This document shows positions 8,109 to 28,168 of a stretch of 64,000 nt of DNA, in pieces. Origin of the DNA: Patescibacteria group bacterium (GTDB lineage Bacteria; Patescibacteriota; Microgenomatia; 2-02-FULL-39-11); contig JAMCUI010000007.1 of assembly GCA_023379265.1 (NCBI GenBank), forward strand, positions 82,330 to 146,329, read 5' to 3'. The position numbers and the translations under genes are program-made. Below the pieces are notes generated by a model. That model did no database searches. It worked only from the letters and a program-made list of their open reading frames with translations, and had not been told where the DNA came from. The first letter of the stretch is position 1. Every line of letters starts with the position of its first letter.

Positions 8109-8150
8109 ATAAACATTTCTTCGTAGGTGATTTCTAATACACCTTTTATA

Positions 8151-9221
8151 TTAGTGTAACCGTCGGTTGACCAGTTTTTTCAATTTCTTTGTAGCCTCCT
8201 CAGGAGTGATGTCTCTTTGTGCTTCAGAAAGCATCTCATATCCAACCATAAATTTTTTTACGACTGCTGATCGAAGTAAAGGTGGGTAATAATGTGCATG
8301 TAGTTGCCAATGGTTATTATTTTTACCGTAAGATGGTGCAAAGTGCCATCCCATGGAATATGGCATGGATGTATCAAATAATTTATCGTAAGCAACTAGA
8401 ATTTTTTTCATTATTTTGGCTAAATCTGTTGTTTCACTAGAAGAAAGTTGTATGAGGTTTGGGTGATGATTTTGAGGGATAATCATTATCTCATACGGCC
8501 AAGTTGCCCAGAATGGTACCAAGACAATCCAGTTATTATTTTCTATGACAATCCGTTCCTGTTTTAACTGTTCTACTTGTAGATAATCAACGAGTAAAGG
8601 AGACTGTTTCTTTTGAAAGTAATTTTTCTGCTGTGTGTCTTCTTTACTAATTTCAGTCGGTATAAAGTTGCCGGCCCAAATTTGTCCATGCGGATGGAGA
8701 TTGGAACAACCCATCATTTCCCCTTTGTTTTCAAATATCTGTACCCATTTATATATTTTACTAAGCGTTTTTGTCTCTTTTATCCAAGTATTGATAACAT
8801 TTTCTATTTTCTTTTCGGGCATTTCAGCGAGAGTTAGATCGTGTTTTGGTGAGAAGCAGACTACGCGACACGCCCCATTTACATTTTCAGAAAAAAATAT
8901 TCCTGACTCCTGCTGAATTTTTGGTTGATTACTCTTAGAGATGGCCGGAAAATCATTATCAAAAACAAAAGTGTTTTCATATTGAGGGTTTATTTGACCA
9001 GAAGCTCTTTTATTGCCTGGACAAAGGTAGCATTGATTATCATATGCTGACTTTTTATCCTTTATGATTTTTTCCTGTTTGCCTTTCCATGGTCGGGAAG
9101 TTCTCTGTGGTGAAACTAAAACCCACTCATCCTTCAAGGGATTATATCTACGATGTGATTGGAATAGTGTCATATTCTTGGATATTATAGTAGATTTTAG
9201 AATATTCCTGAAGTCGGACAT
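8151..9221 (-). CDS. galT: Galactose-1-phosphate uridylyltransferase
   Basis: CYLCPGN zinc motif and FENKGEMMGCSNLHPHGQIWAGNFIP (HPHGQ active-site histidine motif). Confidence 0.85.
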   Translation of the reverse strand: MSDFRNILKSTIISKNMTLFQSHRRYNPLKDEWVLVSPQRTSRPWKGKQEKIIKDKKSAYDNQCYLCPGNKRASGQINPQYENTFVFDNDFPAISKSNQPKIQQESGIFFSENVNGACRVVCFSPKHDLTLAEMPEKKIENVINTWIKETKTLSKIYKWVQIFENKGEMMGCSNLHPHGQIWAGNFIPTEISKEDTQQKNYFQKKQSPLLVDYLQVEQLKQERIVIENNNWIVLVPFWATWPYEIMIIPQNHHPNLIQLSSSETTDLAKIMKKILVAYDKLFDTSMPYSMGWHFAPSYGKNNNHWQLHAHYYPPLLRSAVVKKFMVGYEMLSEAQRDITPEEATKKLKKLVNRRLH

Positions 9222-9336
9222 TTTATATAAATATAATTAATCATCTTTTTATTTTTAATGACACTTTGACAAGTTTTTTGATGTATGATATTGTGTGAAA
9301 ATTAATAATCATTTTGTCTAAACAAAAGGAGAAAAG

Positions 9337-10557
9337 ATGGTAAAAAAACCCACGGTTCTTTTAGCCACAGGTTTTGTTGATGGTAGGGGAGGATCAAAGA
9401 TGAGTTCATGGTTTTATGATGAGATGATAGATCGAGGATATAAGGTAATTGTTGCAACCAACTCAATGTATAAATATAAACTTAATGAATTAAAGTTGAA
9501 GTGTGATGTCACAATTGATCTTAATCCTGAAGATGGTAGGCAGATTATCTATGAAAAATGTGAGGAGGGTCTCAAAAATGTAAATTTTGATTATATGGTA
9601 TCGATGGGGTGGAGGACGTATTGGCCTTATGCTGCTTATAAGAGAAAAATCCCATACATCATGGTAGATGGCGGGATTCCTATCCATTATGATAAATACC
9701 CATCCCCTTTTATCAAAGAAGTTTATGCTAATACTAAATTGTTTTTAATGACTACTTGGTTTAATTGGAAGATGCCTGATAATGATTATATTATTCCCAA
9801 AATAAAGGTTGTAACCCAACCCTATCCTTATAAAAGAGTTGAAGGGATGCGAAAGATACGTAATAAGCCTAGAGAGTATTTTCGTGATATTATTGCCCAA
9901 AAATTCCCCGAGATAAAAGATTATGAATATGATTTAATGGTGTATCTGAATTTATCAGATGCTTATATTGACCCTTTCAATTTCGGGCCCAACAATAGAA
10001 ATTTTGTTGATCCTTGGGGGCATCAAATGGCTGATTATATGGCACAAAACGAAATCGAACCCTCACTTTTTTTCCTGTTTAAGCTGATTGCTGGTTTTGA
10101 GACTAATTACCCTGGAAAAGTATTATTATACTTGATGCAGCAAAAAACGAAGTTTATTTCAGAGCCTATTGTTCAAATGTGTAAGAAAGTTAAAACAATT
10201 GCTACAAGCGGTTTAGACGTAAGTTTGGATCCGTTTATCAAAAAGGCTGCAGACGTCAATATATGCCGTGCCACAAATTGCGATAATCAGGCGGATTTGT
10301 CGTTAATAGGAGAGCCGTGTATAACATCTGTGGTCCCAAAAAACTATATGGATGAGGATACTGCAGCTATTCAAGCAGAGAAACTTGGTGTTTGTTATCA
10401 GATTCAATATGACGATCCGGAATATATGAGGAAATTAAAAGAGTACGTATCTAATAAAGCATTTTATACCAAAATGAGCAATAACACTGCAAACGTATTT
10501 GAAAAGTTCTGGAAAACTAATAATTTTTGGGATGAGCTTTTTAAAGTGTTGAAGTAA
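9337..10557 (+). CDS. Hypothetical protein, possibly GT-B-fold glycosyltransferase-like
   Basis: 406 aa, soluble. N-terminal LLATGFVDGRGG resembles MurG/GT1 glycine-rich loops. No firm family assignment. Confidence 0.35.
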   Translation: MVKKPTVLLATGFVDGRGGSKMSSWFYDEMIDRGYKVIVATNSMYKYKLNELKLKCDVTIDLNPEDGRQIIYEKCEEGLKNVNFDYMVSMGWRTYWPYAAYKRKIPYIMVDGGIPIHYDKYPSPFIKEVYANTKLFLMTTWFNWKMPDNDYIIPKIKVVTQPYPYKRVEGMRKIRNKPREYFRDIIAQKFPEIKDYEYDLMVYLNLSDAYIDPFNFGPNNRNFVDPWGHQMADYMAQNEIEPSLFFLFKLIAGFETNYPGKVLLYLMQQKTKFISEPIVQMCKKVKTIATSGLDVSLDPFIKKAADVNICRATNCDNQADLSLIGEPCITSVVPKNYMDEDTAAIQAEKLGVCYQIQYDDPEYMRKLKEYVSNKAFYTKMSNNTANVFEKFWKTNNFWDELFKVLK

Positions 10558-10591
10558 TTTAGGTTTAGTGACGACTTAAAACAAAGTGAGT

Positions 10592-12223
10592 CTATTGATT
10601 AGTGACATAGACAGTATCAGCATTCGGAAAAGGAGGTATAGGTATTCCAGCAAGGTGTGCTACCATCGTAAAGAAATTTGTCCCCGGGTTTTTATGATTT
10701 TGTAAAAAATAAGTATCTGCCGCATCGACTAAAGATGCTGCTTCTCCAGGATCAGTTGCAATATCAGTTAATCTACTTGCTAATTTAAGCATATCTACTT
10801 CCGAAGTGTATTGGCGTAAACCTCGTAAATAAGCACCTTGATCCATTTTGGGAGCGTCCATATATCCTTCACCAGGGATAGTAAAAATTAACTGAGGAAC
10901 CCCTGCAATAACGCTTTCAGCTGAGGAATTGGCTTGTACCGTGCGGTGTATGACTACATCAGCCGCTCTGTGGTACATTCCGTATTTTGATTGGGGGAAA
11001 CGAGGAGCTCTTACAAGTAAAACTTTTGCTTTTTTTGCCTCTGAAGCAGTGATTTCAGCCATATCCGGTAGGTTTAATGAATTGGCGATTTCAATAAATT
11101 TAGGAACCCCAGATAGTAAAACTTTTTTTCCTGTAAGTCTTGCGATTTCTCTTGCTGCGTGTACAAGTTTCTTACTGCCGATCATCATATCGTCAAATTG
11201 TGCCCTTGTTAGCCATTTACCGATATTACTCGCGTCAAAATATCCGGAACTTGCAAAAAATGGAATAAATATGTTGTCTTTTTTAACTAATTCTTCAGCA
11301 AATGCAGGATCGCTACTTCTAACATATTCTGCGAGCATTTCTCTGGCTGATTCTTTCTTCACTTCTCTCCACTCAGTCCATCTGTGGATATATTCAGGTG
11401 TAAAAGGAATTGATGAAGAGGCTCCAACTATACCATTGGGCGCTCTGTGCCTTGCCCATTTTATATTAAAGTCGATCCATGAATTATTTAGCATCCAAAC
11501 TTCAACGTCTGCGTTACTAGCATATCCCGGTGGATAAAATCTGTCGTAAGGATATCCATCAACTGTAGTGTCAAAACTAGGATTGTCTTCATCAGGAAAC
11601 GAACTGTCTTGCATTATCAGTTTAGCGCGAATATTTTTTCTTGTCTCTTGTTTCACTGTCTCAATGGCTCTTTTTAATCCAAATGGGACAAATCCGGTAT
11701 ATCCCGTACTGACAATAAATATATTTTCATGGCCCTTATTAGCCAGGTCGTAGATGGTATCAGTTAGCGTCTTTTCAACAGTCTTGTATTTTGCAGGAGT
11801 ATCACCGTTTGATTCGGAAAATGAAGTTATTTGTTCAGGAAGGCTCCCAGTAAATTTTTCTTCTGATATATCTGAAACTCCACCAGAGGCACCAGCGTAA
11901 TAGAATGGTATATTAAGAATATTTGCAATTTTTCTCATGCCCTCAGCTACTTGTAAAGCCTGTGTTGACGGTCCGTCACCGGCAAGTCCCGCTGGGTTTA
12001 CATATAAAAGTACATCAGGAGGGTGTCCGTCAAATCCAGATTCTACTCTGCCTATTCTAAAATCAGATGCTCTGGCTACTGCAGGATGCGACGGGTTAGG
12101 TTGTATTTTGAAAAAATCAGGAGCAGCGATAGGCTTTGGGATAAGCCTGCCATCTCCTGGTTCTGTTCCTATTAACGAGTGGATTGCCGAGCTTCTTTCA
12201 GCTTCACTTAGTGCTCTTGCCAT
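10592..12223 (-). CDS. Hypothetical protein with GT-B C-terminal-domain-like motif (putative glycosyltransferase)
   Basis: 543 aa. VVIHRTVQANSSAESVIAGVPQLIFTIPGEGYMDAPKMDQGAY resembles the GT1/MurG-type C-terminal nucleotide-sugar-binding block (hhGG.nS..E....GvP.v..P...DQ). Confidence 0.35.
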   Translation of the reverse strand: MARALSEAERSSAIHSLIGTEPGDGRLIPKPIAAPDFFKIQPNPSHPAVARASDFRIGRVESGFDGHPPDVLLYVNPAGLAGDGPSTQALQVAEGMRKIANILNIPFYYAGASGGVSDISEEKFTGSLPEQITSFSESNGDTPAKYKTVEKTLTDTIYDLANKGHENIFIVSTGYTGFVPFGLKRAIETVKQETRKNIRAKLIMQDSSFPDEDNPSFDTTVDGYPYDRFYPPGYASNADVEVWMLNNSWIDFNIKWARHRAPNGIVGASSSIPFTPEYIHRWTEWREVKKESAREMLAEYVRSSDPAFAEELVKKDNIFIPFFASSGYFDASNIGKWLTRAQFDDMMIGSKKLVHAAREIARLTGKKVLLSGVPKFIEIANSLNLPDMAEITASEAKKAKVLLVRAPRFPQSKYGMYHRAADVVIHRTVQANSSAESVIAGVPQLIFTIPGEGYMDAPKMDQGAYLRGLRQYTSEVDMLKLASRLTDIATDPGEAASLVDAADTYFLQNHKNPGTNFFTMVAHLAGIPIPPFPNADTVYVTNQ

Positions 12224-12577
12224 ATTTATTTATATATTGGCAGGAAATCCGTATTATAAAGAATAAATTTCGTTAATAATTTTCATACTTTATCATACAT
12301 GAAGTTTTTTTGTCAATGTAACACATATTACATTTCTTAAACGATGTTTATAAGTTAGAACAATTTTATTGTTAGTTTTAGTCAAGTTTTAATATACCCA
12401 TTTTACTCTGGTCTGCAACTTTTAGCATAAGCGAAGGGTGAAAAAAGCTGATGAGATGGGTATATACTGTTCTTCGATAAGCTTAGGATCAGTTCTGAGA
12501 CTAAGTCGAAAGACTGAAATAATCAGTTGCAAACTTGAGTTATTGAAGTATAGTAGAAAAATATTTGATGATTTATT

Positions 12578-13819
12578 ATGGTGATTATGGAAACTGAATC
12601 TGAACTTTGGAAGGGAAATTTGGACAAAATTTATCCGTTGATAGATCAAAATGAGTTAAAAATATATAGTAGACTTTTCTGTAGAGAATTAAGCGCAGTA
12701 TTATCCAATCAGATTTCTTCTTTGCCTGCAATCTTAAATCCAATTTGTAAAGTTTCTCCTAGCCCCGGTTACGGTATTGCGATTTCAGTCGGTGGAACAA
12801 ATGGTTATGTTTCATCCTTTTATATTTCAAGGAAAGGAGTATTGAAATTTCATAATAGGTTTTTATTTCCCTTGCCACAGAATACAACGAGGGATAAACT
12901 CTTTCATTTAGTAACAAAAAACGCCTTAAAAGTCTTAAATCATCCTAAGAATTTTCCTCCGATTGGTATTGGTCTTGCTTACCCGTTAAAACCCGTATTG
13001 ACACATAAATATGTTGATGGAGAACTTATGTATATGACAAAAGGGAGAAATATTGAAGGATTGGTAGGGAAAAGGGTTGGACAGGAATATCATAAGTTTC
13101 TAAAAAAAGAATATGGTGTTGATACTACAGTATCAGTAGCAAATGATGCGATATGTCTGCTTTTAGGAGGTGATGGCGCTGAAGCGGCTGGAGTGGTAGG
13201 AACTGGTCTTAATTTTGCCTATTGGGAGAAGACGTATAATATCGCCCCTTTGAAATTGAAAGAACTTGCTGGTTTTTCACAGGCCGAAGTAGCAGTGAAT
13301 ATTGAGTCCAAAAACTTTAATAAGATTGAAGGTACAAAACTTCGTTCTATAGTGGATAAAGAAAGTGTAGATCCCGGATATTCCCTTGCAGAAAAGGAGG
13401 CGGCCGGAGCATATCTTTTTAAGATTTTTAATGCCGGGAAGAAGGAAATTTTAGGAAATAAGTTTCCTGATCTGAGTTCTACAGACCAAATAGATGAAAT
13501 AGTGACGGGATCTTATACGTATCCTATAGAAACTAATGAAGAGTTGCAGATGAAAGCCCGATTATTTGCTCAAAGAATTTTGGAGAGATCGGCGCAGATT
13601 ACGGCTATAGAGTTGTGTGGCGTGCTTATGAAAATAGGAAGGACGAGTGGAGTGGTGTCGATAGTTATGGAAGGCGGAATTTTTTGGAAAGCAAAAAATT
13701 ATCTTTCGTTAGTCAATTTATATATAAATACTATATTGCCTGAAGTGATTCCTTCATTTGCCAGGTTGTTTGGTAGCAGTAGGAGAGGAATTGCTGTTTT
13801 AGCCAGAAGCGTCTATTAA
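12578..13819 (+). CDS. ASKHA-superfamily sugar kinase, hexokinase-like
   Basis: GIAISVGGTNGYV resembles the hexokinase phosphate-1 motif (LDLGGTNFRV). Further glycine-rich ATPase-like segments. 413 aa. Confidence 0.4.
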   Translation: MVIMETESELWKGNLDKIYPLIDQNELKIYSRLFCRELSAVLSNQISSLPAILNPICKVSPSPGYGIAISVGGTNGYVSSFYISRKGVLKFHNRFLFPLPQNTTRDKLFHLVTKNALKVLNHPKNFPPIGIGLAYPLKPVLTHKYVDGELMYMTKGRNIEGLVGKRVGQEYHKFLKKEYGVDTTVSVANDAICLLLGGDGAEAAGVVGTGLNFAYWEKTYNIAPLKLKELAGFSQAEVAVNIESKNFNKIEGTKLRSIVDKESVDPGYSLAEKEAAGAYLFKIFNAGKKEILGNKFPDLSSTDQIDEIVTGSYTYPIETNEELQMKARLFAQRILERSAQITAIELCGVLMKIGRTSGVVSIVMEGGIFWKAKNYLSLVNLYINTILPEVIPSFARLFGSSRRGIAVLARSVY

Positions 13820-13958
13820 TTGTTCCAACTGTAACATATTTGTAAGTTTCTTAGTATGGCGATGGTTTGATGTTTGAATTAAAATGTGCTAGCGTTTTAT
13901 TACTTCTGTTTTTTATCTTTTCCTTGACTGGATATCATATCCCTCTTATCATGGAAAT

Positions 13959-16900
13959 ATGACATCTCCTGAAGCAGGTGGTTTATTTGGTCAATTGAAA
14001 AATTTACTCACCCAATTATTTATAGATAAAAAGAGAATAGAAGAGGAGAAGCGTTTAAGGGAAGAGGCGCAAAGAAGCAAAATTGAGGCTGAAACTCCAG
14101 AAAATATTAGAAGAGATAGAGAACGGCATAGAGAAGAAGATGAAGAAAGAGCTTATAGAGAAAGAGCCTCAGCTGACGAAATGGCTGAAGAGGAGCAAGG
14201 GGAAATCCAAAACAGAAGAATAGGTTTAAGAAAACAAGCTATTAAAGAGGAGTTGCGCAAGGCTATTGCACAACAGGAGATGATTGCGGGAGAGCGGCAG
14301 GTCTATAAAGAATATGCTTATGTGGATTATTTAGTCAGTGATTTTAGGGCGGATACAAATCTCCGGGATGGTCTATACGCATTAATTGATGCAAATTATA
14401 GTGCAGCGCTTATCATTGAGAAGATTATAAAAGGTGGTAAGGCTCTTCATTCTGATCCGCAACAGCTTCTGGATATTGGTGCAGCTTTGTATTTCCAGGC
14501 CAGTCAATCAGGGATGGTTCCTGCTATCCAGCCAATCTTAAATGAGGTGGAAGAACGTGTCCTTCAGCTTTTCATTGATGTAAGAAAGAAAGGAATAGAA
14601 ACCAGATCTGGAGGTGTACGCGAAATTAATAACCCGGCTCAGTTTTTGGCTGATGCTGACAAAAGATATCCCCCAAATGATTTTAGGGATTTATCATCAA
14701 ATAATCCGGCGGAATGGCGTCGCGGAATACACAATATATTAAACTCTGCTCGTCCCGGGGCAGATGCTGAGTATACAAGGGAAGCTTTAGAGTCAGCAGT
14801 ATCGATAGACAGAAATGCCCCTCCTCCCCAAAAACTGGTAAATGAGGTATCCGATTTATTGCAAAAAGTTCAGGATAGAGAAAATGCCGGTGAACCTTTG
14901 TCCAGCAGCGAATTAAATGATTTAAGCGACGAGATTGACCAGGTTGGATTTAACTCTTTCCCACAGGATGTGGTTGCTGGTACAAACAGATATTTGCAGA
15001 CTGCTGCCAATATAAGAAGTTATACCGAGTCAGTCAAGAACAAATTGGCAGAAAAAGCAGTCGAACGTTTAAGATCAGAAGTGCCTAGTGTGGAACGGAA
15101 TCTGACGTCTGAGCAGTTTTTGGAGCGAATTGGACATCCTGGCGATATGGGCCGATTATTGGTCAGCAGTCCAGATGTGGCAAAGCTTTTGGTGGGCAAT
15201 ACCAAAGAAAGTTCAAGCTTTCGGTTCAAAGTTTTCCTCAGAATACACGCGGCTGTACTTACTCAGCGACGTGAGTCATTTCATGATAATTTTGGATTAT
15301 ACGAAAGGGCTGATTTTACCGCATTTATTAATCATATTAGGAATAATATGAAAGGCGTGCGGCCTGAGACGGGCCAGCCTTTTGGTGAAGCCTGGGTTGA
15401 TTGGTATGTTGGTTTGAGCAATTCCATCCGTTTATCCCGCGATATAGATTTCTGGGCTTCACAGCCTGGAGCCGATCCCGAACAATTCAACCGTTCGCTG
15501 TCTCTTTTTTTGAATGAATACAATGTTCAATTGATGAGCGTTCCGGGAGTGGAGCAGGCCTATAGGGCATATCTTAGTACGATAAAATCCATCAAAAACC
15601 ATAATGATGGCTATGTACCTCCCGCATTAGTAGAGTATTCTCCAGGTAAGATGGTTTCAGGATGGGATAATATGGCCCGAGAATGGGTAAAGAAGATGAT
15701 TTCCATGGGGCAGATACAGGACGTGGACCGTGATCCTTATGGGTTCCATAAGTTGGAAGAGAATGGGTTTACTCTGAAGCTAAAAGAGGGCCCCGAAGGA
15801 AAATTAAAAATGGAAAATATGAGCAATGAGGAGATGGCAATGTATATGACTCTTGCGAAAGGATATGGAATATCAACATGGATGTTACTGGATGAATTTG
15901 CCAACTCCAAAGTTCCAGGTTCAGATCATCCTAGATGGGGAATGACAGGTTTTCATAGTCTTGCGGCGTACGAGGGAGTCGCCCGTGCAGGAAATTATTT
16001 TGCATCAGTGGTAACGAAGTGGAAGTATACATTCAAATATTTTCATATGATGAATATGCTAGTTCCTGAACATAAAAGGAAAGTGTGGGGCGCCAGTGAT
16101 TTTAATGAAGCTAAAAAGGCATATATTGCTTATAGAAACGGTACTTTTGAGAAGGAGTTTGGAAAGGACGCAAAGCGCATGATTGATTTGGATAACTTCA
16201 GTCACTTTTCTGCTAATTTACCATTTTCAGGATGGAGACATGTGGATATGACAATAGGTTGGTCCGATAAACTTCGTGAATCTATGGGATCTGCCCATCA
16301 AATAGGTATGGCTAATGCTTTTGCTGGCGCTAAGGTAAAAGATTATTTTGTGGTTGATAAATATAAAAAGGAATTTAGGGATAAGATGAGAGAAGCAGGA
16401 CAACCTTATGCCGGTCCGCGTTTTGACGCTTTGTGGCAGGAAAGAGGATATCCAATATATAAAGCAAGGATTGAGAATGAGTGGGATAGTATAAAACATA
16501 AGGAGGAGGTTGAGGAGTTGGTTTCTAAATACGCAAAAGCTTATAAGGCTAGAGTTTGGATAGAAACCGCGATGCGTAATCCTTTGGCAATAGCCCAAAA
16601 TGTAAAAGTAAAAGTGCCAATTCCTGGATTTACTGCAGAGGAAGGTAAAAGAGATGTAAGTATCCATTTGCTTTTGGTGCAAAAAATTTTGGGAATTCCT
16701 TATGAAGATATAAAGTACGGAGACGATCCCAAAAGCCGGGAAGCAAAAGTATACGCCTCACCAACGGTTTCACAAGAAAGGTGGATGAAAGAAGCTGCTG
16801 ACTTAGAGTCTGATATAGCAGTAGTGCGTGAGATTGCGATACGTGAGAATAGGGAACTGCGTGAGTCAGATTTCAATGCCATAAGTGACGCGCATCGTAA

Positions 16901-17795
16901 GAGAGATGCTTTGGAGTATTGGAAAGCTGTGCGAAAGATGATGTTGGGAGATTTATCTCCTGATTTACATGAGCGTTTATACGAAAAGCTCGGTCTTAAA
17001 ATGTCAGAGAATGGTTATGACTACGATATTGATTGGGAAAAGATCGAGCATGTAGATCATATTGTAAATGAAATAAGTCACGGTGAAGGGATTGATTTGG
17101 GTAATTTGGAAGGAGTACGTATTCAAATTCCACATCAATTAAATAAGGAGTTGATAGATAAAGAGTGGGATGAAATGTTCAGCCCCGATGACATTTCCAT
17201 AAGAGAATTGGATATGATGAATCTCGGCTCAAGACATCTTATCAGGCGCGGAGGGGATGCACTTGCTCATTATCAGGGAGGACAACGGTTGGAAAAGTAT
17301 CTAATGTATGACCTCAAAGGCAATCCGAATCCTGAAGATTTGGCAAAAGCCTTATCGGAAGTGGCTCAGGCATATACTGGTGATGATACATTAAAAGGTT
17401 GGAGAGCGGCTGGAATGTGGGCATATGCAACGTCGAAATTTTATTCGTTTGATTATGGGCATTTGGGTTCTCCTGCACAATTGCAAGTGTATGGAACGAG
17501 AAGAGGAATTGCCGCCTGGATGGCAAACGGCAGAAGAAAATTCTGGGATACAATTGAGCATCTTGATGTTTTACCGCCTACTCATGAGGGTTTTTTGGAT
17601 TATTATGCACAACCAGAGCTCATGAATATACATGAATTACGAAGATTGTCAAAAGCTGATAATGTTGATGTTTGGATGGAAATAGTGACTTTGGGTGCGG
17701 CATTGGCTATAGCCTTGACTATTTACCGGGCATTTACCGCACCTTCAGAAGAAGAGGAAGGCGGTGGGGGAGGCGGTGGCGGGGGACATCACTGA
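13959..17795 (+). CDS. Giant hypothetical protein (1278 aa): acidic/basic coiled-coil N-terminus, single C-terminal TM helix, poly-Gly-HH tail
   Basis: Uninterrupted 3.8-kb ORF. N-terminus is highly charged (EEEKRLREEAQRSKIEAE...). C-terminus is VTLGAALAIALTIYRAF followed by EEEEGGGGGGGGGHH. No recognisable catalytic motif. Converges on and overlaps the VirB6-like gene by 7 nt. Confidence 0.6.
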   Translation: MTSPEAGGLFGQLKNLLTQLFIDKKRIEEEKRLREEAQRSKIEAETPENIRRDRERHREEDEERAYRERASADEMAEEEQGEIQNRRIGLRKQAIKEELRKAIAQQEMIAGERQVYKEYAYVDYLVSDFRADTNLRDGLYALIDANYSAALIIEKIIKGGKALHSDPQQLLDIGAALYFQASQSGMVPAIQPILNEVEERVLQLFIDVRKKGIETRSGGVREINNPAQFLADADKRYPPNDFRDLSSNNPAEWRRGIHNILNSARPGADAEYTREALESAVSIDRNAPPPQKLVNEVSDLLQKVQDRENAGEPLSSSELNDLSDEIDQVGFNSFPQDVVAGTNRYLQTAANIRSYTESVKNKLAEKAVERLRSEVPSVERNLTSEQFLERIGHPGDMGRLLVSSPDVAKLLVGNTKESSSFRFKVFLRIHAAVLTQRRESFHDNFGLYERADFTAFINHIRNNMKGVRPETGQPFGEAWVDWYVGLSNSIRLSRDIDFWASQPGADPEQFNRSLSLFLNEYNVQLMSVPGVEQAYRAYLSTIKSIKNHNDGYVPPALVEYSPGKMVSGWDNMAREWVKKMISMGQIQDVDRDPYGFHKLEENGFTLKLKEGPEGKLKMENMSNEEMAMYMTLAKGYGISTWMLLDEFANSKVPGSDHPRWGMTGFHSLAAYEGVARAGNYFASVVTKWKYTFKYFHMMNMLVPEHKRKVWGASDFNEAKKAYIAYRNGTFEKEFGKDAKRMIDLDNFSHFSANLPFSGWRHVDMTIGWSDKLRESMGSAHQIGMANAFAGAKVKDYFVVDKYKKEFRDKMREAGQPYAGPRFDALWQERGYPIYKARIENEWDSIKHKEEVEELVSKYAKAYKARVWIETAMRNPLAIAQNVKVKVPIPGFTAEEGKRDVSIHLLLVQKILGIPYEDIKYGDDPKSREAKVYASPTVSQERWMKEAADLESDIAVVREIAIRENRELRESDFNAISDAHRKRDALEYWKAVRKMMLGDLSPDLHERLYEKLGLKMSENGYDYDIDWEKIEHVDHIVNEISHGEGIDLGNLEGVRIQIPHQLNKELIDKEWDEMFSPDDISIRELDMMNLGSRHLIRRGGDALAHYQGGQRLEKYLMYDLKGNPNPEDLAKALSEVAQAYTGDDTLKGWRAAGMWAYATSKFYSFDYGHLGSPAQLQVYGTRRGIAAWMANGRRKFWDTIEHLDVLPPTHEGFLDYYAQPELMNIHELRRLSKADNVDVWMEIVTLGAALAIALTIYRAFTAPSEEEEGGGGGGGGGHH

Positions 17796-19345
17796 TGATG
17801 TCCATCTCCCTTTTTGGAGAACATACTCATTATAGATTGCAAATAGTAGAATTGGCTCATAGCTCCCATACCGGTTCCTACCGCTCCAGTAACTGGTGCA
17901 AAAGCACTACCAGCAGTGACGGGTATAGCAGCTTTCGGATGGAAAAGTTTTTTGACGGAAGCAATCATGTTTGGAGCCATAAATATAATTCCCAGCCCGA
18001 TTACTATAGCCAACGGATTACCTTTTATATGCAGTATGCTTTGATTTGTGCCCGGAATAGTGAGATTGAGCTCTCCACCTCCAGCAGGAATTAATGGTGG
18101 ACTCCAGAGGTTACCGCTCCAGGCAATAGACGTAAATATCCAACTGAAATAAATAACCGCAACAGTAGTCGGAAAAACTATTAAATTAGCAATTATGTTT
18201 TGTATCCATTGGCCGAACGCTGATCTTCCGGGAATAGCTTCCTGAAGAAGGAGAATAGGAGCAATAATGACAGTCAATAATAGTTGGATATACGAGTTTA
18301 AGAGAAGGAAAAATATCCTTATAAACGTAAATAAAAGACCAAGACCGATAATAAAAAGTATTATAGCAAGTGGAGCTCCTGCTAAAAAAAGTCCCCATCC
18401 ACCTGTAAAAGTACCCAATATTGCAAGCATTGCTTCAATAATAATTGTGATTGCGCCATAACCCAATAAGTTTGTTCCGGAACTGAAAAATGCCTGTTGG
18501 AAAAAAGATGGTACCAGTCCTAATGAGAAAACGGCTGAAGCCAGTTTCCCGATACCTGCCCACCCGCCTCCCATAAATTCCTGTTGCTGTTGGGCAACGT
18601 TTTTAAGAAAATCTGCCCCAATAATAAGATTGTTTGGAACAGCGCTCGCCATAAGTTGAATTACAATTGCTATTGCCAGATACATTAAATCGATGAAAAA
18701 ACCGGCAATCGGGTATGAGAAGGTAATTAGAAGCAAGGTAACAATAATTTTAGGTAATGCTGCCTGAATAGAAATTACTGTTTTGGGGTCAATTTTCATA
18801 CGGAATATTATCATGAAACCAATGGCGATCATAATAATAATCAGTATGGTATATGCTATATTCCTTGCAGTTTGCCAAAGTGGCAAAAGAGGGACAAGGC
18901 CTGAGAATCCAATTCCCTGAGCGTTAGCGGGTGTAGCCAAAAAGCCAGAATTTGCCAACAGGTTTTGTGTATATGCTATAGCTGAAGCCGGCGGATGGTC
19001 GTATAATGTTCCTATGGCTTGAGCCATCAGTCCTAGAGCGCTTGTGTTTTCCAGACTGCTTTGCCCATTATTTGCGCTTGATGACTGACATGGCATGAGG
19101 GCACAAGTCAATTTCCCAATCATTGTAAAAGTGTTATAGCCTATTACTCTGTCAGAAAAAATTACAGTTTGACCTGTGTTTTTTTCGACATTTTCTGCAC
19201 TTTGTTCGTTAGTGAGCATTTTTTCAAAAGAGAAATTGAAAGGATTATCAGCCGCTGAAATTTTTTTGGGTAAGATGAGAAGAAATAGAACAAAGGATAT
19301 AGATAAAATAACTAAAAGAAGCATCTTATCAGGCAGTTTAAGCAT
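17789..19345 (-). CDS. Polytopic membrane protein, VirB6/TrbL-like (type IV secretion-type)
   Basis: 518 aa. Signal/TM N-terminus, ~130-aa extracytoplasmic domain, multiple TM helices, Gly-rich C-terminal tail. Directly adjacent to six VirB2-like pilin genes. Confidence 0.45.
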   Translation of the reverse strand: MLKLPDKMLLLVILSISFVLFLLILPKKISAADNPFNFSFEKMLTNEQSAENVEKNTGQTVIFSDRVIGYNTFTMIGKLTCALMPCQSSSANNGQSSLENTSALGLMAQAIGTLYDHPPASAIAYTQNLLANSGFLATPANAQGIGFSGLVPLLPLWQTARNIAYTILIIIMIAIGFMIIFRMKIDPKTVISIQAALPKIIVTLLLITFSYPIAGFFIDLMYLAIAIVIQLMASAVPNNLIIGADFLKNVAQQQQEFMGGGWAGIGKLASAVFSLGLVPSFFQQAFFSSGTNLLGYGAITIIIEAMLAILGTFTGGWGLFLAGAPLAIILFIIGLGLLFTFIRIFFLLLNSYIQLLLTVIIAPILLLQEAIPGRSAFGQWIQNIIANLIVFPTTVAVIYFSWIFTSIAWSGNLWSPPLIPAGGGELNLTIPGTNQSILHIKGNPLAIVIGLGIIFMAPNMIASVKKLFHPKAAIPVTAGSAFAPVTGAVGTGMGAMSQFYYLQSIMSMFSKKGDGHHQ

Positions 19346-19447: not shown

Positions 19448-19762
19448 TTATTGGGGGATTGTAAAAGTGGTAATGTTGACTCCGGTAAAACTTTCAATAA
19501 GTTTGAATATTATAAAGGCAACAGCAAAAAGGACAATTCCAATGATGGCATAGGTCATAGTTTGTTGTGCGGAAGCTGCGGCTTTTTGATCACCTCCAGA
19601 GGTAAGAAACTTAAAACCTCCAATGGTTAACATAACAAATAACGCCAAAACAGCCAGACTAATTGAAATTGTTAGAATTCTAGTAAAAACTACTTCTAAG
19701 CATTTGAAAGTTGGGATGTCTACTCCACCTATATTAAGAGTACATGTTGACCAATCAGTCAT
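19448..19762 (-). CDS. VirB2/TrbC-type (T4SS pilin-like) small membrane protein, paralog 1
   Basis: 104 aa; GGFKFLTSGGDQKAAASAQQTMTYAIIGIVLFAVAF, the GG-aromatic-x-TSGGD-x-A motif flanked by two hydrophobic helices. Confidence 0.6.
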   Translation of the reverse strand: MTDWSTCTLNIGGVDIPTFKCLEVVFTRILTISISLAVLALFVMLTIGGFKFLTSGGDQKAAASAQQTMTYAIIGIVLFAVAFIIFKLIESFTGVNITTFTIPQ

Positions 19763-19782: not shown

Positions 19783-20172
19783 TTAAAATGGTGTCGGGAT
19801 GCTAAGATTCTGAAGGTTAAACCCAAGGAATTGTCCGGCTACCAACATGATTGCCCATGCAGCAAATACAATAAAAAGCCCCAAGAGAGCTGCTTGGATA
19901 CGGTGTTGAGCAGCTTCAACTCCAGCTTTGTCGCCTCCTGAGGTGATCCAGCCAAACCCACCCCAGATAAGGAAAATAAAGGCAGCCAGAGCGGAAACAA
20001 CCAGTATAAGACCAATAATACCGCCTATCAGTTTACCAGGATCAACTATTTTCAAATTTGGAGGTGTGGAAACACTGATGTTTACCTGGGCAAGCGCGAT
20101 TGATGGGAAAAATATAAGAGTGCTGATACTTCCTATTCCGATTGCTGATGCTAATTTTATTGCCTTTTTCAT
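19783..20172 (-). CDS. VirB2/TrbC-type pilin-like protein, paralog 2
   Basis: Signal peptide, then WGGFGWITSGGDKAGVEAAQHRIQAALLGLFIVFAAWAI. Confidence 0.6.
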   Translation of the reverse strand: MKKAIKLASAIGIGSISTLIFFPSIALAQVNISVSTPPNLKIVDPGKLIGGIIGLILVVSALAAFIFLIWGGFGWITSGGDKAGVEAAQHRIQAALLGLFIVFAAWAIMLVAGQFLGFNLQNLSIPTPF

Positions 20173-20288: not shown

Positions 20289-20639
20289 TTACAAAAGTTT
20301 AGGTAGACTGAGTTGGAAACCACCTCCAGCGATTGAGCCTATACCTAAGAACCTCAGGATAAGTAAATAAATTGTCCAGGCGGCAAAAACAATAAACAAA
20401 CCTAAGAGAGCGTTAGTAATTCTGTTTCGTGCGTTTTCCACACCAGTTTTATCTCCACCTGAGGAAATCCACTCCAGGCCTCCTTGTAGCAGCTGAAATA
20501 ATGTCCAGATTGAAGCAAATACGAGGATTAGTCCAACCAGACCGGAGATGAAGGTGCCTAAGATACCTCCTGCATTATCAGGGTTTGCGTTTGCAATTCC
20601 AGATACTACTGGGTTGACAATAGGATCGATATAAATCAT
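20289..20639 (-). CDS. VirB2/TrbC-type pilin-like protein, paralog 3
   Basis: Internal Met start (ATGA overlap with the upstream gene). LQGGLEWISSGGDKTGVENARNRITNALLGLFIVFAAWTI. Confidence 0.55.
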   Translation of the reverse strand: MIYIDPIVNPVVSGIANANPDNAGGILGTFISGLVGLILVFASIWTLFQLLQGGLEWISSGGDKTGVENARNRITNALLGLFIVFAAWTIYLLILRFLGIGSIAGGGFQLSLPKLL

Positions 20640-21079
20640 ATGCCAAGGTTTTGTAAAACACTTCCTGGATTTAAGATACTTAGTCCCAGCATTGATCCTA
20701 TCACTCCGATTATTGCCCAAGCAATAACAACAATTACAAGTCCGATAAGAGAATTGGTGATTTTATCTCGTGCGGCCGTCGTATCGTTTTTATCTCCACC
20801 TGCTGAAATCCACTGAAATCCTGCCGTAATAAACTGGAATATAAACCAAAGAGCAGCAATCATGGTTAAAAAACCAATGACACCGCTGATGACTTTATTT
20901 AATGTATTCCCTACATCCTCTTTAGTATTGTTCTGGCAAAGAAAATCGGCTATAACCCCAAATCCTCCTCCACACCCAAGTCCTTGACTACTGTTTGTGG
21001 TTTGTGCTTGAGCTATTTTCCCTGAGTAAACAAAAAGTAACGAAAAAGTAAAAAGTGTGATAAATAATTTGATTTTCAT
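20636..21079 (-). CDS. VirB2/TrbC-type pilin-like protein, paralog 4
   Basis: Signal peptide, Cys pair, ITAGFQWISAGGDKNDTTAARDKITNSLIGLVIVVIAWAI. Confidence 0.6.
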   Translation of the reverse strand: MKIKLFITLFTFSLLFVYSGKIAQAQTTNSSQGLGCGGGFGVIADFLCQNNTKEDVGNTLNKVISGVIGFLTMIAALWFIFQFITAGFQWISAGGDKNDTTAARDKITNSLIGLVIVVIAWAIIGVIGSMLGLSILNPGSVLQNLGI

Positions 21080-21097: not shown

Positions 21098-21478
21098 TTA
21101 CTGCTGTAGTTGTGGTTGCAATATTGCAGTTGGGTTCTTGAAGAGCAACATGCCAATGATTGCAGCCAGAAGAAATGAAGAAACGATAATGAGTAGACCT
21201 AAAAAGGTTTGCCAGATACGTTCCCATGATTTTCCTATCGCTTTTGAGTCCCCACCCGCTGTCATAAATCCAAATCCACCAATTATCAGATTTATAAAAC
21301 CCCAGAGTCCAGCGATGATAAACACTAACTTTAATAGCGAATTTAGAAATATAAGCATACCTGTTAATTTACCGGTAGAGTCGATTCCAGATTGTATAAA
21401 GCTTGGTGGGGTGATGCAACCTATTGCAGGATCACAAGCAGCCAATATGTAATTTATGATGATCATGTTAAAAACCAA
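21098..21478 (-). CDS. VirB2/TrbC-type pilin-like protein, paralog 5
   Basis: IGGFGFMTAGGDSKAIGKSWERIWQTFLGLLIIVSSF. Confidence 0.55.
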   Translation of the reverse strand: MVFNMIIINYILAACDPAIGCITPPSFIQSGIDSTGKLTGMLIFLNSLLKLVFIIAGLWGFINLIIGGFGFMTAGGDSKAIGKSWERIWQTFLGLLIIVSSFLLAAIIGMLLFKNPTAILQPQLQQ

Positions 21479-21794
21479 GACCGCTTAACGAGCCATGTGT
21501 AACGAAGTTTATTATTTGCAATATCCAGTATGCACCAAACATGGTGACAAGTCCAATTATGGCATAGGTTAGTGCCTGTTTTTTACTTTCAGCCTCATGA
21601 GAATCTCCTCCTCCGGCACCGGAAATCATACCTATGCCAGCTACGATTATAATTACGAAGGAGATGATTCCACCCAATAGTAATATGTTGGGTAAGAGAT
21701 GGGAAACAATATCAGAAAGTGAACTAAACCCTCCATTTCCGTTTTCACCGGACAACTGCCAAACTTTTGATATGTCTACCTGTGCCAATCGCAT
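21468..21794 (-). CDS. VirB2/TrbC-type pilin-like protein, paralog 6
   Basis: IVAGIGMISGAGGGDSHEAESKKQALTYAIIGLVTMFGAYWI. First gene of the minus-strand array, divergent from the sigma factor. Confidence 0.5.
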   Translation of the reverse strand: MRLAQVDISKVWQLSGENGNGGFSSLSDIVSHLLPNILLLGGIISFVIIIVAGIGMISGAGGGDSHEAESKKQALTYAIIGLVTMFGAYWILQIINFVTHGSLSGLGF

Positions 21795-21936: not shown

Positions 21937-22506
21937 TTGAGTGAAATTATATTATTTTCCGACAAATATATGATGAGCGAAAAGGAAATCATAAATGGTA
22001 TTCTTCATGGTAACGAAAAAACGCTGCGTTTTTTTTACCTCTATTATCAGCCAAGACTCGGAGCTTATCTTAAAAATAAAGTATCAAATGAGGAGGATGC
22101 TGAGGAGATTTTGCAGGATACTCTTTTGGCTACCATTGAAGGACTGCGTGATTTTGCCTTCCGGTCGTCACTTTTTACATTTATTTGCAGCATAGCAAAT
22201 CATAAGGTGATTGATTATTACAGAAAGAAAAAGATCAAAAATGTTGTCTTTTCTCATATCCCAGATATTGAGCCTCTTATAGCTACATTGTCCGGTCCTG
22301 AGGATGACTTTAATGATCAACTCCTGAAACAGAAGATAATAGCTACATTCAGAAAAATTGCCCCGCGGTACAGTCTCATATTAAAACTGAAATATGTCTA
22401 CGGTTATTCAGTTGAAGAAATTGCCAGAAAGCTATCAATTTCCTTCAAAAGCGCCGAAAGCCAGCTTTTTCGCGCACGAAGAGCTTTCGAGTTAGCTTAT
22501 TCATAA
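21937..22506 (+). CDS. ECF-type RNA polymerase sigma-70 family factor
   Basis: Region 2 (ILQDTLLATIEGLRDFAFRSSLFTFICSIANHKVIDYYRKKK) and region 4 HTH (YVYGYSVEEIARKLSISFKSAESQLFRARRAFE). Confidence 0.8.
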   Translation: MSEIILFSDKYMMSEKEIINGILHGNEKTLRFFYLYYQPRLGAYLKNKVSNEEDAEEILQDTLLATIEGLRDFAFRSSLFTFICSIANHKVIDYYRKKKIKNVVFSHIPDIEPLIATLSGPEDDFNDQLLKQKIIATFRKIAPRYSLILKLKYVYGYSVEEIARKLSISFKSAESQLFRARRAFELAYS

Positions 22507-22518
22507 TATAAATAGTTT

Positions 22519-22752
22519 ATGGATAATGATAAAACATACCAGCTTTTAGTTGATAAAATGCATGAAGTTGCAGCTATCCCTACTCAGGAGGTGGGGAATT
22601 TTACTATTGCTTATAAGAAACTTGTGCCTTTCTTAAAGTATTATCCCTGGAAAAGCGCTATTATACTTTCTTTTATATCTGTTTCTTTACTTTACTTGAT
22701 TTTCGGAACATTTCTAGTTAAAGTTGCTTCCATGCTTCAATTCGGGTTTTAA
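22519..22752 (+). CDS. Putative anti-sigma factor (small, C-terminal TM helix)
   Basis: 77 aa with a single C-terminal TM helix, immediately downstream of the ECF sigma gene. Position-based call. Confidence 0.35.
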   Translation: MDNDKTYQLLVDKMHEVAAIPTQEVGNFTIAYKKLVPFLKYYPWKSAIILSFISVSLLYLIFGTFLVKVASMLQFGF

Positions 22753-22760
22753 CTTCTGTT

Positions 22761-23390
22761 ATGGATGTGTTTGTTATTACCTTTGTCCGTCTTCTTTTCT
22801 TTTTCACAAAGAATCTAATTGGATGTTTTAACACTCCATACCTAACCTACAGAAAGCTTTTGGGAGAAAAATCTGGAATATACCAGACCGGTTTTATTTT
22901 TATTCTTGTGATTTCCTATTTTATTTTCGCTTCAGCTTTAAGGGTTGGCGTACATAGTCCTCTTCTTTTAACTTTAAGGTTGAATCTTCTTTTGTTCTCA
23001 GCCGCGATTGGATTTATAGCTATGTTATTTGTCATATTTATGTTAGGGAAAACGATCGGAAGTAGCGGTAGATTCATTGATGTATATAAACTTTGGTCCT
23101 TCACTCTTATCCCGACAATAGTTTGGTTTTTTACAACTTCACTACTTTATATAATTATTCCACCTCCAAGAACATTAAGTTTTTTGGGTAAGCTATTTAG
23201 CGTTGTCTTTATCGCTTTTTCAGTCTCCGTCTTTCTTTGGAAGGCAATATTATATTATTTAACTTTGAGGTTTGCCCTCAGACTTGATCTTGCAAAGATC
23301 GGTTTTATGACTGTAGTCATATTGCCTTTACTTGTAGTTTATTCTGTGTTGATGTATAAGCTGGGGATTTTTAGAGTCCCATTTATTTAG
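22761..23390 (+). CDS. Hypothetical polytopic membrane protein
   Basis: 209 aa, ~5 TM helices, third gene of the sigma/anti-sigma operon. Confidence 0.4.
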   Translation: MDVFVITFVRLLFFFTKNLIGCFNTPYLTYRKLLGEKSGIYQTGFIFILVISYFIFASALRVGVHSPLLLTLRLNLLLFSAAIGFIAMLFVIFMLGKTIGSSGRFIDVYKLWSFTLIPTIVWFFTTSLLYIIIPPPRTLSFLGKLFSVVFIAFSVSVFLWKAILYYLTLRFALRLDLAKIGFMTVVILPLLVVYSVLMYKLGIFRVPFI

Positions 23391-24578
23391 TTGGTGATAA
23401 AGGAGTGGTTTATGAGATTGCGAGACTTAAAAACGATTCAGGAAAGAAGAAAATTTTTAGAAAAGAAAACAGGAATTTCCTTTTTCCCAAACGAAAACTT
23501 TCCTGATGGTTTTGAGATTGCTCAGGAAAAAAACTGTGAAAACATGATTGGGGTAGTTCATGTACCGGTAGGTGTAGCTGGACCGATTCTATTGAATAGT
23601 AAATCAGCTTCAGAAGAAATCTATATTCCGCTTGCGACTACTGAAGGAGCTTTGGTTGCATCAGTTAACCGTGGTTGTAAAGCGATAAACCAAGACGGAG
23701 GTGTTTCAGTCTATTCTGAAAATATTGGTATAACGCGAGGTCCAGTCTTCAAAACAAGTGGTTTGGCACAGGGTCTACATCTGAAGCAATGGGTCAAAGA
23801 CGAGTTTTCTCAGTTACAGAGGATGGTTGTTTCAACATCGTCTCATATTACCCTTATCAAGGTTGATTTCCAGATATCAGGCAAGAATATATATATGAGA
23901 TTTTATTACGATACACAGGATGCCATGGGGATGAATATGGTAACAATAGCCACACAAGAGTTAGTTTCATTTATAGAAGATAGAATGAAGGTTAAATGTA
24001 CATCACTAGCGGGAAATTATGATATAGATAAAAAACCGGCTTGGTTAAATTTTATCTCCGGCCGTGGTAGACAGGTTTGGTCAGAGGCTGTTTTGGAAGA
24101 AAGTACTATTAAGGAAGTGTTAAAGACTACTCCGTCTGCCATACATGATGTATCAGTAAGTAAGAATTTGGTAGGTTCTGCCCTTTCAGGAGCTTTAGGG
24201 TTTAATGCCCATTTTGCCAATGTTATTGCTGCAATTTTTATTGCCACAGGTCAGGATGCGGCACATGTGGTTGAAGGAAGTCTGGGAATTTGTACGACAG
24301 AAATAGTTGATAATAACAGTCTTTATATATCGGCATTTCTGCCGGATTTGCCTGTTGGAACAATAGGCGGTGGTACTAATTTACCATCGCAGAAGAAAAT
24401 GTTAGAACTTATGGGAATAACAGGTGGAGATAAAGGTAGTAACGGAGAGAAAATCGCAGAAATAATTGGAGCAACTGTTCTAGCTGGGGAATTATCCCTT
24501 TTGGCATCTTTGGCTGAGGGAAGCTTGGCAAAAACACATGAAAGGTTAGCCAGAGGAAAAGTTAAAAAAAAGATATAA
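23391..24578 (+). CDS. hmgA: Hydroxymethylglutaryl-CoA reductase (class I-like catalytic domain)
   Basis: ENMIGVVHVPVGVAGP, DAMGMNMV, GTIGGGT motifs of HMGR. Possible true start at MRLRDL (23412). Confidence 0.85.
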   Translation: MVIKEWFMRLRDLKTIQERRKFLEKKTGISFFPNENFPDGFEIAQEKNCENMIGVVHVPVGVAGPILLNSKSASEEIYIPLATTEGALVASVNRGCKAINQDGGVSVYSENIGITRGPVFKTSGLAQGLHLKQWVKDEFSQLQRMVVSTSSHITLIKVDFQISGKNIYMRFYYDTQDAMGMNMVTIATQELVSFIEDRMKVKCTSLAGNYDIDKKPAWLNFISGRGRQVWSEAVLEESTIKEVLKTTPSAIHDVSVSKNLVGSALSGALGFNAHFANVIAAIFIATGQDAAHVVEGSLGICTTEIVDNNSLYISAFLPDLPVGTIGGGTNLPSQKKMLELMGITGGDKGSNGEKIAEIIGATVLAGELSLLASLAEGSLAKTHERLARGKVKKKI

Positions 24579-24595
24579 TTTACCTCTTAATAATT

Positions 24596-25636: not shown

Positions 25637-25640
25637 ACTT

Positions 25641-26783: not shown

Positions 26784-26888
26784 AGTAGAACTGGTACCAA
26801 AACCTATATTTTCGGCTTAGTATAATTGCATTTTTACACTCAAATAAACAGTTTTAATAGAGGTTTTAGTAACCTAAAGGAATAAATT

Positions 26889-27188
26889 ATGATCAGTCCG
26901 GTCAAAGTTTGGCGCAATCAAAAAAAAATTCAAAAAATATTAGGGCTTTATGGAATAATAGTTTCCTGGACTAAAGTACATGTTCCTCCAGTGGGATTTT
27001 CCTCTCAAGCCCCATATGTGATTGTTGTGGTTAAGCTGGAATCAGGTAAAAGTTATATAGCACAACTTGTTGATTGGAGTGAAAATAGCTTGAAAACAGG
27101 ACAGAAGGTGAAAGCTGTTTTAAGAAGAACAAAGAATCCAGGTGAAGAAGGAGTGATACCATACGGTGTTAAGTTCAAACCCGTGTGA
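26889..27188 (+). CDS. DUF35-type OB-fold protein (thiolase/HMGCS complex partner)
   Basis: 99 aa; OB-fold segment YVIVVVKLESGKSYIAQLVDW...GQKVKAVLRR. Position after thiolase + HMGCS as in archaea. Confidence 0.6.
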   Translation: MISPVKVWRNQKKIQKILGLYGIIVSWTKVHVPPVGFSSQAPYVIVVVKLESGKSYIAQLVDWSENSLKTGQKVKAVLRRTKNPGEEGVIPYGVKFKPV

Positions 27189-28164: not shown

Positions 28165-28168
28165 CTTT

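Follow-up and report, generated by a model that had tools for sequence, protein, structure and literature searches.

Introduction

Patescibacteria possess type IV secretion system (T4SS)-like loci with arrays of VirB2-like pilin genes, and the T4SS genes and pilin arrays are essential in the only Patescibacterium that has been manipulated genetically. To our knowledge, these VirB2-like pilin sets are the only ones known in monoderm bacteria. Here, we analyse a 64,000-nucleotide stretch (hereafter, the window) of contig JAMCUI010000007.1 from a Patescibacteria group bacterium, an uncultured, ultra-small member of the Gottesmanbacteria group (assembly GCA_023379265.1, positions 82,330 to 146,329), which contains such a pilin array, a gene for a 518-amino-acid (aa) polytopic membrane protein beside it (the partner), and a gene for a 1278-aa protein that converges on the partner gene (the giant). 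We give about an even chance to the view that the giant is a lineage-specific structural component of a T4SS-like VirB2-pilin apparatus of Microgenomatia-type Patescibacteria, and the obligate partner of the polytopic protein that occupies the position of VirB6.

The closest described system is the T4SS-like system of Patescibacteria (Wang et al. 2023, PMC10633639; Quinonero-Coronel et al. 2025, PMC12102498). According to PMC12102498, VirB2 arrays are abundant in Microgenomatia, VirB6 homologues are scarce there, "suggesting extreme sequence divergence", and the type IV coupling protein and VirB8 were mostly not found near virB4. Canonical parts of the machine (VirB6 in Microgenomatia, VirB8 and the coupling protein) are reported as missing or unrecognisable. 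The loci studied here resemble this system in several aspects: they belong to the Microgenomatia/Gottesmanbacteria lineage, their arrays consist of 2-7 divergent PF18895 genes, no relaxase or coupling protein is encoded nearby, and one distant locus (L027) carries PrgI/VirB3-, TraC- and VirB4-like genes and an M23 gene. They differ in that the pilin-partner-giant module of the window is not located beside virB4. A giant with a polytopic partner is not among the components catalogued in the available portions of PMC10633639 and PMC12102498, and a giant tail-anchored component is not mentioned in those of a 2025 T4SS review and of the Southlakia genetics paper. Hence, the type of system is known, and the giant family and its invariant pairing appear to be undescribed, as far as our searches and the accessible literature go.

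The giant and its partner are paired in distantly related loci

The giant gene (13959-17795, forward strand) and the partner gene (17789-19345, reverse strand) overlap by 7 nucleotides (nt) at their 3' ends, as the initial annotation of the window had correctly noted. Behind the partner gene, also on the reverse strand, lie six VirB2-like pilin genes (19448-19762, 19783-20172, 20289-20720, 20636-21079, 21098-21478 and 21468-21794). The T4SS_pilin profile PF18895 matches five of these open reading frames (ORFs) with E values from 1.8e-8 to 2.9e-4, four of them above the gathering score, and the sixth pilin (21098-21478) matches the pilins of L027 by phmmer. On this basis the array is assigned to VirB2/TrbC-type pilins, which are small two-helix hairpin proteins recognised by PF18895/PF04956.

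Related loci were fetched and annotated with our own hidden Markov models (HMMs) for the giant, the partner and the pilins, and pairing was counted in the 22 independent loci that have DNA beyond the 3' end of the giant gene. In all 22 of them, the giant faces a convergent homologue of the partner. The two stop codons are separated by -7 to +19 nt in 19 loci, and by about 0.9-1.0 kb in two others. PF18895 pilin arrays of 2-7 genes are present behind the partner in most loci. The question raised by the initial annotation, whether homologues of the giant always neighbour VirB6/VirB2-like arrays, is therefore answered positively for the partner, and for the pilin arrays in most but not all cases.

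The pair persists in distant loci where the other neighbours differ, including clades at a sequence identity of about 17%. These are L009 (member P0024), in which a gene for a cytosine/purine-type transporter is found upstream in place of the hexokinase gene; L010, L023 and L025, which represent a distant clade (clade B); L028 (P0106); L029 (P0047); and L027 (P0108), which contains a full T4SS cluster. The left part of the L027 cluster comprises a SpoIID gene on the opposite strand, genes for pilin-domain proteins and pilins, and then a further pilin gene with the gene for a 376-aa protein before it and that for a 226-aa protein after it. This pilin operon ends with the giant, which is followed by the convergent partner; the partner in turn adjoins genes for a PrgI/VirB3-like protein, a TraC-like protein, a VirB4-like ATPase (P-loop_TraG/AAA_10) and a 918-aa Peptidase_M23 protein. 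The L027 pair lies within what is recognisably a T4SS cluster of the monoderm type, and the gene order there implies that the pilin operon is ended by the partner in one clade and by the giant in another. A two-gene module that is deeply conserved at pilin arrays, and that stands among VirB3-/VirB4-like genes in one lineage, is a concrete candidate for the missing inner-membrane parts. The invariant convergent pairing and the L027 cluster support the earlier proposal that the giant belongs with the adjacent locus of pilins and a polytopic protein.

The giant is a predicted tail-anchored helical protein

The giant ORF starts with ATG and runs without interruption for 1278 codons plus a stop codon, as the ORF list and the translation confirm. 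At about 37% GC, some 6-7% of random codons are stops, so that the probability of 1278 open codons arising by chance is negligible (about e^-87, inferred from composition). The protein is 100% identical to the NCBI hypothetical protein M1271_01810 from a metagenome-assembled genome of a Patescibacteria group bacterium. Directly upstream, a sigma-70-like promoter match (TTGACT-17-TATCAT, 10/12 positions; 13924-13952) stops 6 nt short of the ATG, and a Shine-Dalgarno sequence is not apparent; an mRNA made from such a promoter would be leaderless or nearly so. Around the giant gene, matches that resemble promoters are not above chance.

The N-terminus begins with a short amphipathic-looking segment (residues 8-21, GLFGQLKNLLTQLF; 13980-14021), and similar segments occur in close relatives. 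Family-wide, the hydrophobic moment of this segment does not exceed that of internal controls (0.491 vs 0.490), which makes it a weak, subfamily-level feature. It is followed by a charged, presumably helical region (residues 23-125; 14025-14333). Residues 1-130 contain 24% D/E and 21% K/R, and residues 23-125 are 48% E+R+K with a hydrophobic fraction of 0.20. Opposite-charge pairs at i/i+3 and i/i+4 are in excess in residues 23-125 (36 vs 27.5 +/- 4.0 in shuffles), and hydrophobic residues occupy only 27% of the heptad a/d positions in the best register. Together, the charge-pair excess and the low a/d occupancy suggest that this region resembles an ER/K-type charged helix or a polyampholyte. 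A classic heptad coiled coil is not supported by the a/d occupancy; of the "charged coiled-coil N-terminus" of the initial annotation, the charged character stands. ER/K single alpha-helices serve as spacers in myosin VI and X. The giant resembles these spacers in its E/R/K content, its excess of opposite-charge pairs and its few heptad hydrophobics, and differs from them in that its region contains one Pro and several Gly residues, is poorly conserved, and is missing in many members of the family, including P0004 and the shorter distant ones.

A variable helical region (residues 126-329; 14334-14945), which shows low conservation in the alignment of close relatives, leads to a conserved alpha-helical core (residues 330-1238; 14946-17672), supported by structure prediction and by a profile-profile match. 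The core is non-repetitive: when six blocks were compared with each other using hhalign, all probabilities were 4% or lower. Next comes the C-terminal transmembrane helix (residues 1239-1259, WMEIVTLGAALAIALTIYRAF; 17673-17735), the sole hydrophobic segment of the giant, where the one hydropathy peak spans residues 1236-1258, and finally an acidic, poly-Gly and His-containing tail of the EEEE-Gly9-HH type (TAPSEEEEGGGGGGGGGHH; 17736-17792), which is conserved in the close subfamily. The single C-terminal helix and the poly-Gly-His tail are thus present as had been described. It should be noted that the giant contains no cysteine at all among its 1278 residues, compared with 9.9 expected (P ~5e-5). 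Its core is 27.9% charged and 23.8% S/T/N/Q/G, a composition nearer to that of the cytoplasmic enzymes encoded in the window than to that of its exported proteins.

A word-indexed search returned nine full-length homologues with 36-48% identity, and a second search of this kind, started from 55 aligned sequences, recovered none but the 7 close relatives. When 1.84 billion cluster representatives were searched exhaustively with a profile, 139 matched at E <= 1e-3, 64 of them at E <= 1e-30. Nearly all members are 900-1350 aa long. Those members and loci that can be placed belong to Candidatus Gottesmanbacteria or Microgenomates (species-representative genomes); three related loci carry the title "uncultured Gammaproteobacteria", which is evidently mistaken. 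The distant clade B is connected to the main clade by an hhalign match with a probability of 100% (E 5.8e-51, 777 columns, 17% identity).

Nearly all full-length members end in a hydrophobic helix at the extreme C-terminus followed by a short polar tail. At a hydropathy threshold of 1.5 or more, the helix is detected in about 81% of 109 members, and a second hydrophobic segment is found in none of the 109. The 12-residue hydropathy maximum within the first 56 residues is below 2.0 in all 108 members analysed (mean 0.45), that is, no signal peptide is detected in them. With a sole transmembrane segment near the C-terminus and no signal peptide, the giant has the features of a tail-anchored protein. 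The extension of EEEE, poly-Gly and His is limited to the closer subfamily, and distant members keep only the short polar tail. The N-terminal ~330 residues are variable or absent across the family. The family is defined by the core (residues ~330-1238 in the giant) together with the C-terminal helix.

No match to the giant was found in Pfam, NCBIfam, PHROGs or PADLOC. Nine distant members gave nothing relevant in Pfam, apart from two unrelated sub-threshold matches in one of them, and a scan of 43 diverse members at E <= 1 gave only singleton chance matches. Among PDB sequences, searched with the giant alone and with the 55-sequence profile, only designed helical bundles were found (E > 0.006). 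The giant contains no Walker A motif of the form [AG]xxxxGK[ST], and a loose version of the pattern occurs in only 7 of the 108 members. The absence of a recognisable enzymatic motif noted at the outset is therefore upheld, and the giant seems to be the founder of an undescribed protein family, as far as these searches and the accessible literature show.

Structure prediction with AlphaFold reached a pLDDT of 66.7 with nine sequences, and a pLDDT of 88.7 and a pTM of 0.88 with 55 sequences for residues 330-1278. The latter model consists of one well-packed, almost wholly helical body with a few beta-hairpins, in accordance with the long alpha-helical body proposed by the initial annotation, and its pTM indicates a rigid core. 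Foldseek comparison of this model with PDB and BFVD gave nothing below E 1e-3 (TM ~0.1), so that neither structure prediction nor remote-homology search yielded a confident match to a known family. Residues conserved across the superfamily include W759, P875, G1090, D1078, R1096, D1100 and S1171; most members have a Glu at position 539, and the close subfamily shares an RDIDF motif. Aromatic residues, Gly and Pro make up most of the conserved positions, which suggests a structural core more than an active site. With its high-confidence model, the giant would be a defined target for experimenters, and for annotators the giant and the partner would provide two new families for the T4SS profile sets of the Candidate Phyla Radiation.

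The convergent partner occupies the position of VirB6

The translated partner has an N-terminal signal or anchor sequence, a domain of about 130 residues and many hydrophobic helices. Its family comprises more than 557 homologous clusters, many of which are named Candidatus Gottesmanbacteria, and a segment of the pattern KKxFxPKPxLPxxAGT...QFYY is conserved at the C-terminus. No Pfam match was obtained at E <= 1 among 36 family members, and a comparison of the partner profile with PDB sequences found nothing. A VirB6/TrbL identity of the partner by sequence is thus rejected at the sensitivity of the Pfam and PDB searches. The "VirB6-like" label given to it earlier holds for its position, since it is a polytopic protein beside pilins in the window and beside PrgI-, TraC- and VirB4-like genes in L027, and not for its sequence. 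The scarcity and divergence of VirB6 in Microgenomatia described in PMC12102498 fit a partner without a VirB6 sequence match.

The convergent junction of the two genes (17787-17800) is near-palindromic (CATCACTGATGATG), which means that both genes end in His-His(-Gln)-stop. Gly-rich or His-containing tails occur in both proteins in most of the 22 loci. No terminator or inverted repeat was found at the junction, and stop codons that are -7 to +19 nt apart leave no room for separate terminators. It is possible that the transcripts of the giant and the partner overlap in antisense at their 3' ends.

A proposed role as a platform of a T4SS-like machine

The best supported interpretation of these results is that the giant is functionally coupled to the partner and, through the partner, to the VirB2-pilin/T4SS-like apparatus. 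As it has no signal peptide, the giant would be made in the cytoplasm. Its C-terminal helix would then insert in the membrane, leaving the short acidic, Gly-rich and His-containing tail outside, and would probably pack against the transmembrane bundle of the partner. The rigid helical body of about 900 residues may lie at the cytoplasmic face and serve there as a platform or adaptor on which pilins are handled or substrates dock, and the variable N-terminal third with its ER/K-rich charged helix may be a spacer. Such a platform with its N-terminus inside is supported by the lack of a signal peptide in the 108 members, the single C-terminal helix, the cytoplasm-like composition and the charge bias around the helix (K/R 2.6 vs D/E 1.7 before it, and D/E 3.0 vs K/R 2.1 after it, family-wide). 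Consequently, of the roles suggested by the initial annotation, a cytoplasmic scaffold is most consistent with the data. A motor is not supported, in view of the lack of a P-loop in the giant, the rarity of even loose Walker A patterns in the family and the lack of a match to an NTPase family. An effector is disfavoured by the single-copy nature of the family, its conserved length and its fixed tail-to-tail setting with a membrane protein.

The giant may stand in for inner-membrane parts that are unrecognisable in these bacteria, such as a VirD4-type receptor or VirB8. It resembles VirD4-type coupling proteins and the DotL-DotM proteins of the Dot/Icm system in being encoded with a T4SS and in having what we take to be a membrane-anchored large cytoplasmic domain, and it would be a plausible docking platform where no coupling protein is found near virB4. 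It differs from them in having no Walker A/B or NTPase signature, in having its anchor at the C-terminus instead of the N-terminus, and in showing no sequence or Foldseek similarity to them. The possibility that the giant itself is a VirD4-type coupling protein or a VirB4 ATPase was rejected on the lack of a P-loop NTPase motif and of Pfam/NCBIfam matches. A second parallel is provided by VirB6/TrbL proteins and particularly by the "extended VirB6" proteins (FEMS review PMC12857230), as here too a polytopic protein located by pilins (and by VirB3-/VirB4-like genes in L027) is associated with a very large hydrophilic domain. In this case the hydrophilic mass forms a polypeptide in its own right, which is encoded convergently and carries a C-terminal anchor, and neither the giant nor the partner is similar in sequence to VirB6/TrbL. 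The giant may thus supply in trans the large hydrophilic domain of extended VirB6 proteins. Going one step further, we tentatively propose, with somewhat less than even confidence, that the giant and the partner are an unrecognised core pair of the Patescibacteria T4SS-like pilus machine, in which a platform with a fold so far absent from solved structures and a VirB6 analogue diverged past recognition replace parts of the coupling-protein/VirB8 type. If true, this core pair would define how ultra-small epibionts assemble VirB2 pili in a monoderm envelope.

Several observations weigh against a role of the giant in such an apparatus. The window contains no homologue of VirB4, VirB3, TraC or M23 proteins, and the tie of the giant to a complete T4SS comes from one distant locus, L027. 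The giant and the partner are on opposite strands and hence are not co-transcribed, and in one of the 22 loci (L011, from a Gottesmanbacteria genome) their stop codons are 7 kb apart. Among close relatives the whole neighbourhood is syntenic, including the hexokinase and mevalonate genes, and therefore only the distant loci carry weight for the linkage of the two genes. The VirB6-like label of the partner is a positional analogy only, and the conserved residues of the giant give no hint of a binding or catalytic site. Family-wide, Cys makes up 0.13% of residues compared with 0.77% in the other proteins of the window, a roughly six-fold depletion over the 108 members, 42 of which are free of Cys; such a depletion is odd in a protein of the cytoplasm and would be compatible with a location outside it as well. 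Finally, the case for contact with the partner and for a role in pilus biogenesis or secretion is indirect.

Alternative explanations

The Cys depletion keeps alive the view that the giant is exported or exposed at the surface, for example as an adhesin, an effector or a protein associated with the pilus, and that it leaves the cell by T4SS-like export without a signal peptide and is held at the surface by its C-terminal helix. Depletion of Cys is typical of exported proteins in many monoderm bacteria. The hydrophobic C-terminus with its Glu-rich tail also loosely recalls the charged C-terminal signals of T4SS substrates, even if the Glu/Gly/His tail is restricted to the close subfamily. A further consideration is that PMC12102498 reports no PrgB-type adhesin from Patescibacteria T4SS loci, and the giant is similar in size to such adhesins, which are known from Gram-positive conjugation: at ~1300 aa, with a C-terminal membrane-proximal anchor and a monoderm-type T4SS gene setting, it is alike in several aspects. 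It differs from them in being all-alpha and not beta-rich, and a sortase-anchored PrgB-like adhesin is rejected, as a signal peptide was found in 0 of the 108 members and an LPxTG motif, within the last 80 residues, in 1 of the 108. The highly charged, all-alpha and cytoplasm-like composition does not fit a surface protein either, other exported proteins of the window are not Cys-depleted (the 443-aa pilin-domain protein described below has 17 Cys), and a family of conserved length with strict one-to-one pairing looks more like part of a machine than like its cargo. In terms of topology, charge bias and composition favour an N-in orientation and leave the Cys depletion unexplained. We therefore regard a surface location as rather unlikely.

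The convergent orientation without co-transcription, the broad synteny with unrelated metabolic genes among close relatives and the lack of a T4SS ATPase in the window would all be compatible with a membrane-associated housekeeping scaffold, involved in cell shape, division or the envelope, whose adjacency to the partner reflects conserved gene order and not a shared function. What argues against this is that the close juxtaposition of the stop codons (-7 to +19 nt) is kept at ~17% identity when every other neighbour has changed, and that in L027 the giant lies within the pilin operon itself; we judge such a scaffold unlikely. A membrane-tethered enzyme of a new all-alpha type, modifying or processing pilins, lipids or envelope precursors at the cytoplasmic face, could account for the large, rigid and non-repetitive core and for the deeply conserved polar residues (D1078, R1096, D1100, S1171, E539 in most members, and RDIDF in the close subfamily). 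This explanation appears improbable to us, as not even a weakly recurrent enzyme family emerged from Pfam, NCBIfam or PDB sequences across the 43 diverse members, Foldseek gave no match, and conserved residues that are mostly aromatic, Gly or Pro are those expected of a structural core.

The initial annotation had further suspected a separate ancestry of the giant gene because its codon usage looked more GC-rich than that of its neighbours. The gene is indeed slightly richer in GC (0.419) than the mean of the 62 ORFs of the window (0.374; z 1.3). The excess is found at codon position 1 (0.526 vs 0.450; z 1.7) and not at position 3 (0.353 vs 0.317; z 0.7), and thus reflects amino-acid composition and not codon usage. 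Given the amino-acid sequence, the GC content at position 3 (GC3) expected from simulations with the pooled codon usage of the other window genes is 0.334 +/- 0.012; the corresponding z of 1.5 lies inside the range of -2.6 to +2.7 covered by most window genes, and at -1.02 the mean log-likelihood per codon is unremarkable. The codon usage of the giant gene is therefore ordinary. Moreover, its place between the hexokinase gene and the partner gene is kept across many Gottesmanbacteria genomes, and tblastn of the giant against plasmid and phage collections gave no match. Vertical inheritance is favoured by these three lines of evidence, and a recent acquisition as a foreign gene, for which the raw GC content would speak, is effectively refuted. 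Two other genes of the window are better candidates for a foreign origin or unusual expression, since their GC3 is high given their amino-acid sequences: those of a GNAT acetyltransferase (43539-44507; z 5.1) and of a DUF2079 membrane protein (56399-57844; z 6.1).

Other genes at the locus

As listed, the pilin ORFs 20289-20720 and 20636-21079 overlap by 85 nt. For the former, the TTG start probably lies too far upstream, and translation more likely begins at an internal Met (…PWHMIYIDP…). Divergent from the pilin array, on the forward strand, are genes for a sigma-70 factor of the extracytoplasmic function (ECF) type (NCBIfam), a 77-aa ORF and a Yip1-family membrane protein recognised through its homologues (21937-23390 together). 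This arrangement is also present in L001, L011, L012 and L017-L019, and the distant locus L028 has an ECF sigma factor at the same position without the 77-aa ORF or Yip1. The ECF sigma factor is a candidate regulator of the pilin operon.

A second pilin-type locus (33133-40078, both strands) was recognised with our own pilin HMM, the Pfam SpoIID profile and phmmer matches to the left arm of L027. Its reverse strand encodes a 102-aa pilin (33133-33441), the 443-aa pilin-domain protein with 17 cysteines (33477-34808) and a 161-aa pilin-domain protein (34848-35333), and its forward strand SpoIID (35415-37274, Pfam), a bPH-like protein (37303-37974) and a 613-aa NHL-like protein (38237-40078). The locus is homologous to the SpoIID/pilin-fusion left arm of the L027 T4SS cluster, and hence the genes of the apparatus appear to be split over at least two loci in this genome. 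Distant loci also contain additional unannotated proteins, namely a 769-aa protein encoded between partner and pilin genes in L028 (5204-7513 of that locus), and the two proteins of 376 and 226 aa from within the L027 pilin operon (7789-9946); none of the three has a homologue in the window.

The regions on either side (8151-13819 and 23391-30091) encode GalT, a eukaryote-type hexokinase-family protein and a complete archaeal-type mevalonate pathway, with HMG-CoA reductase and synthase, thiolase, GHMP kinases and decarboxylase. Such metabolic surroundings are also seen in L001, L005, L011 and L012, and relatives add the large subunit of RuBisCO. These flanking genes represent typical Gottesmanbacteria metabolism and are unrelated to the pairing of the giant and the partner.

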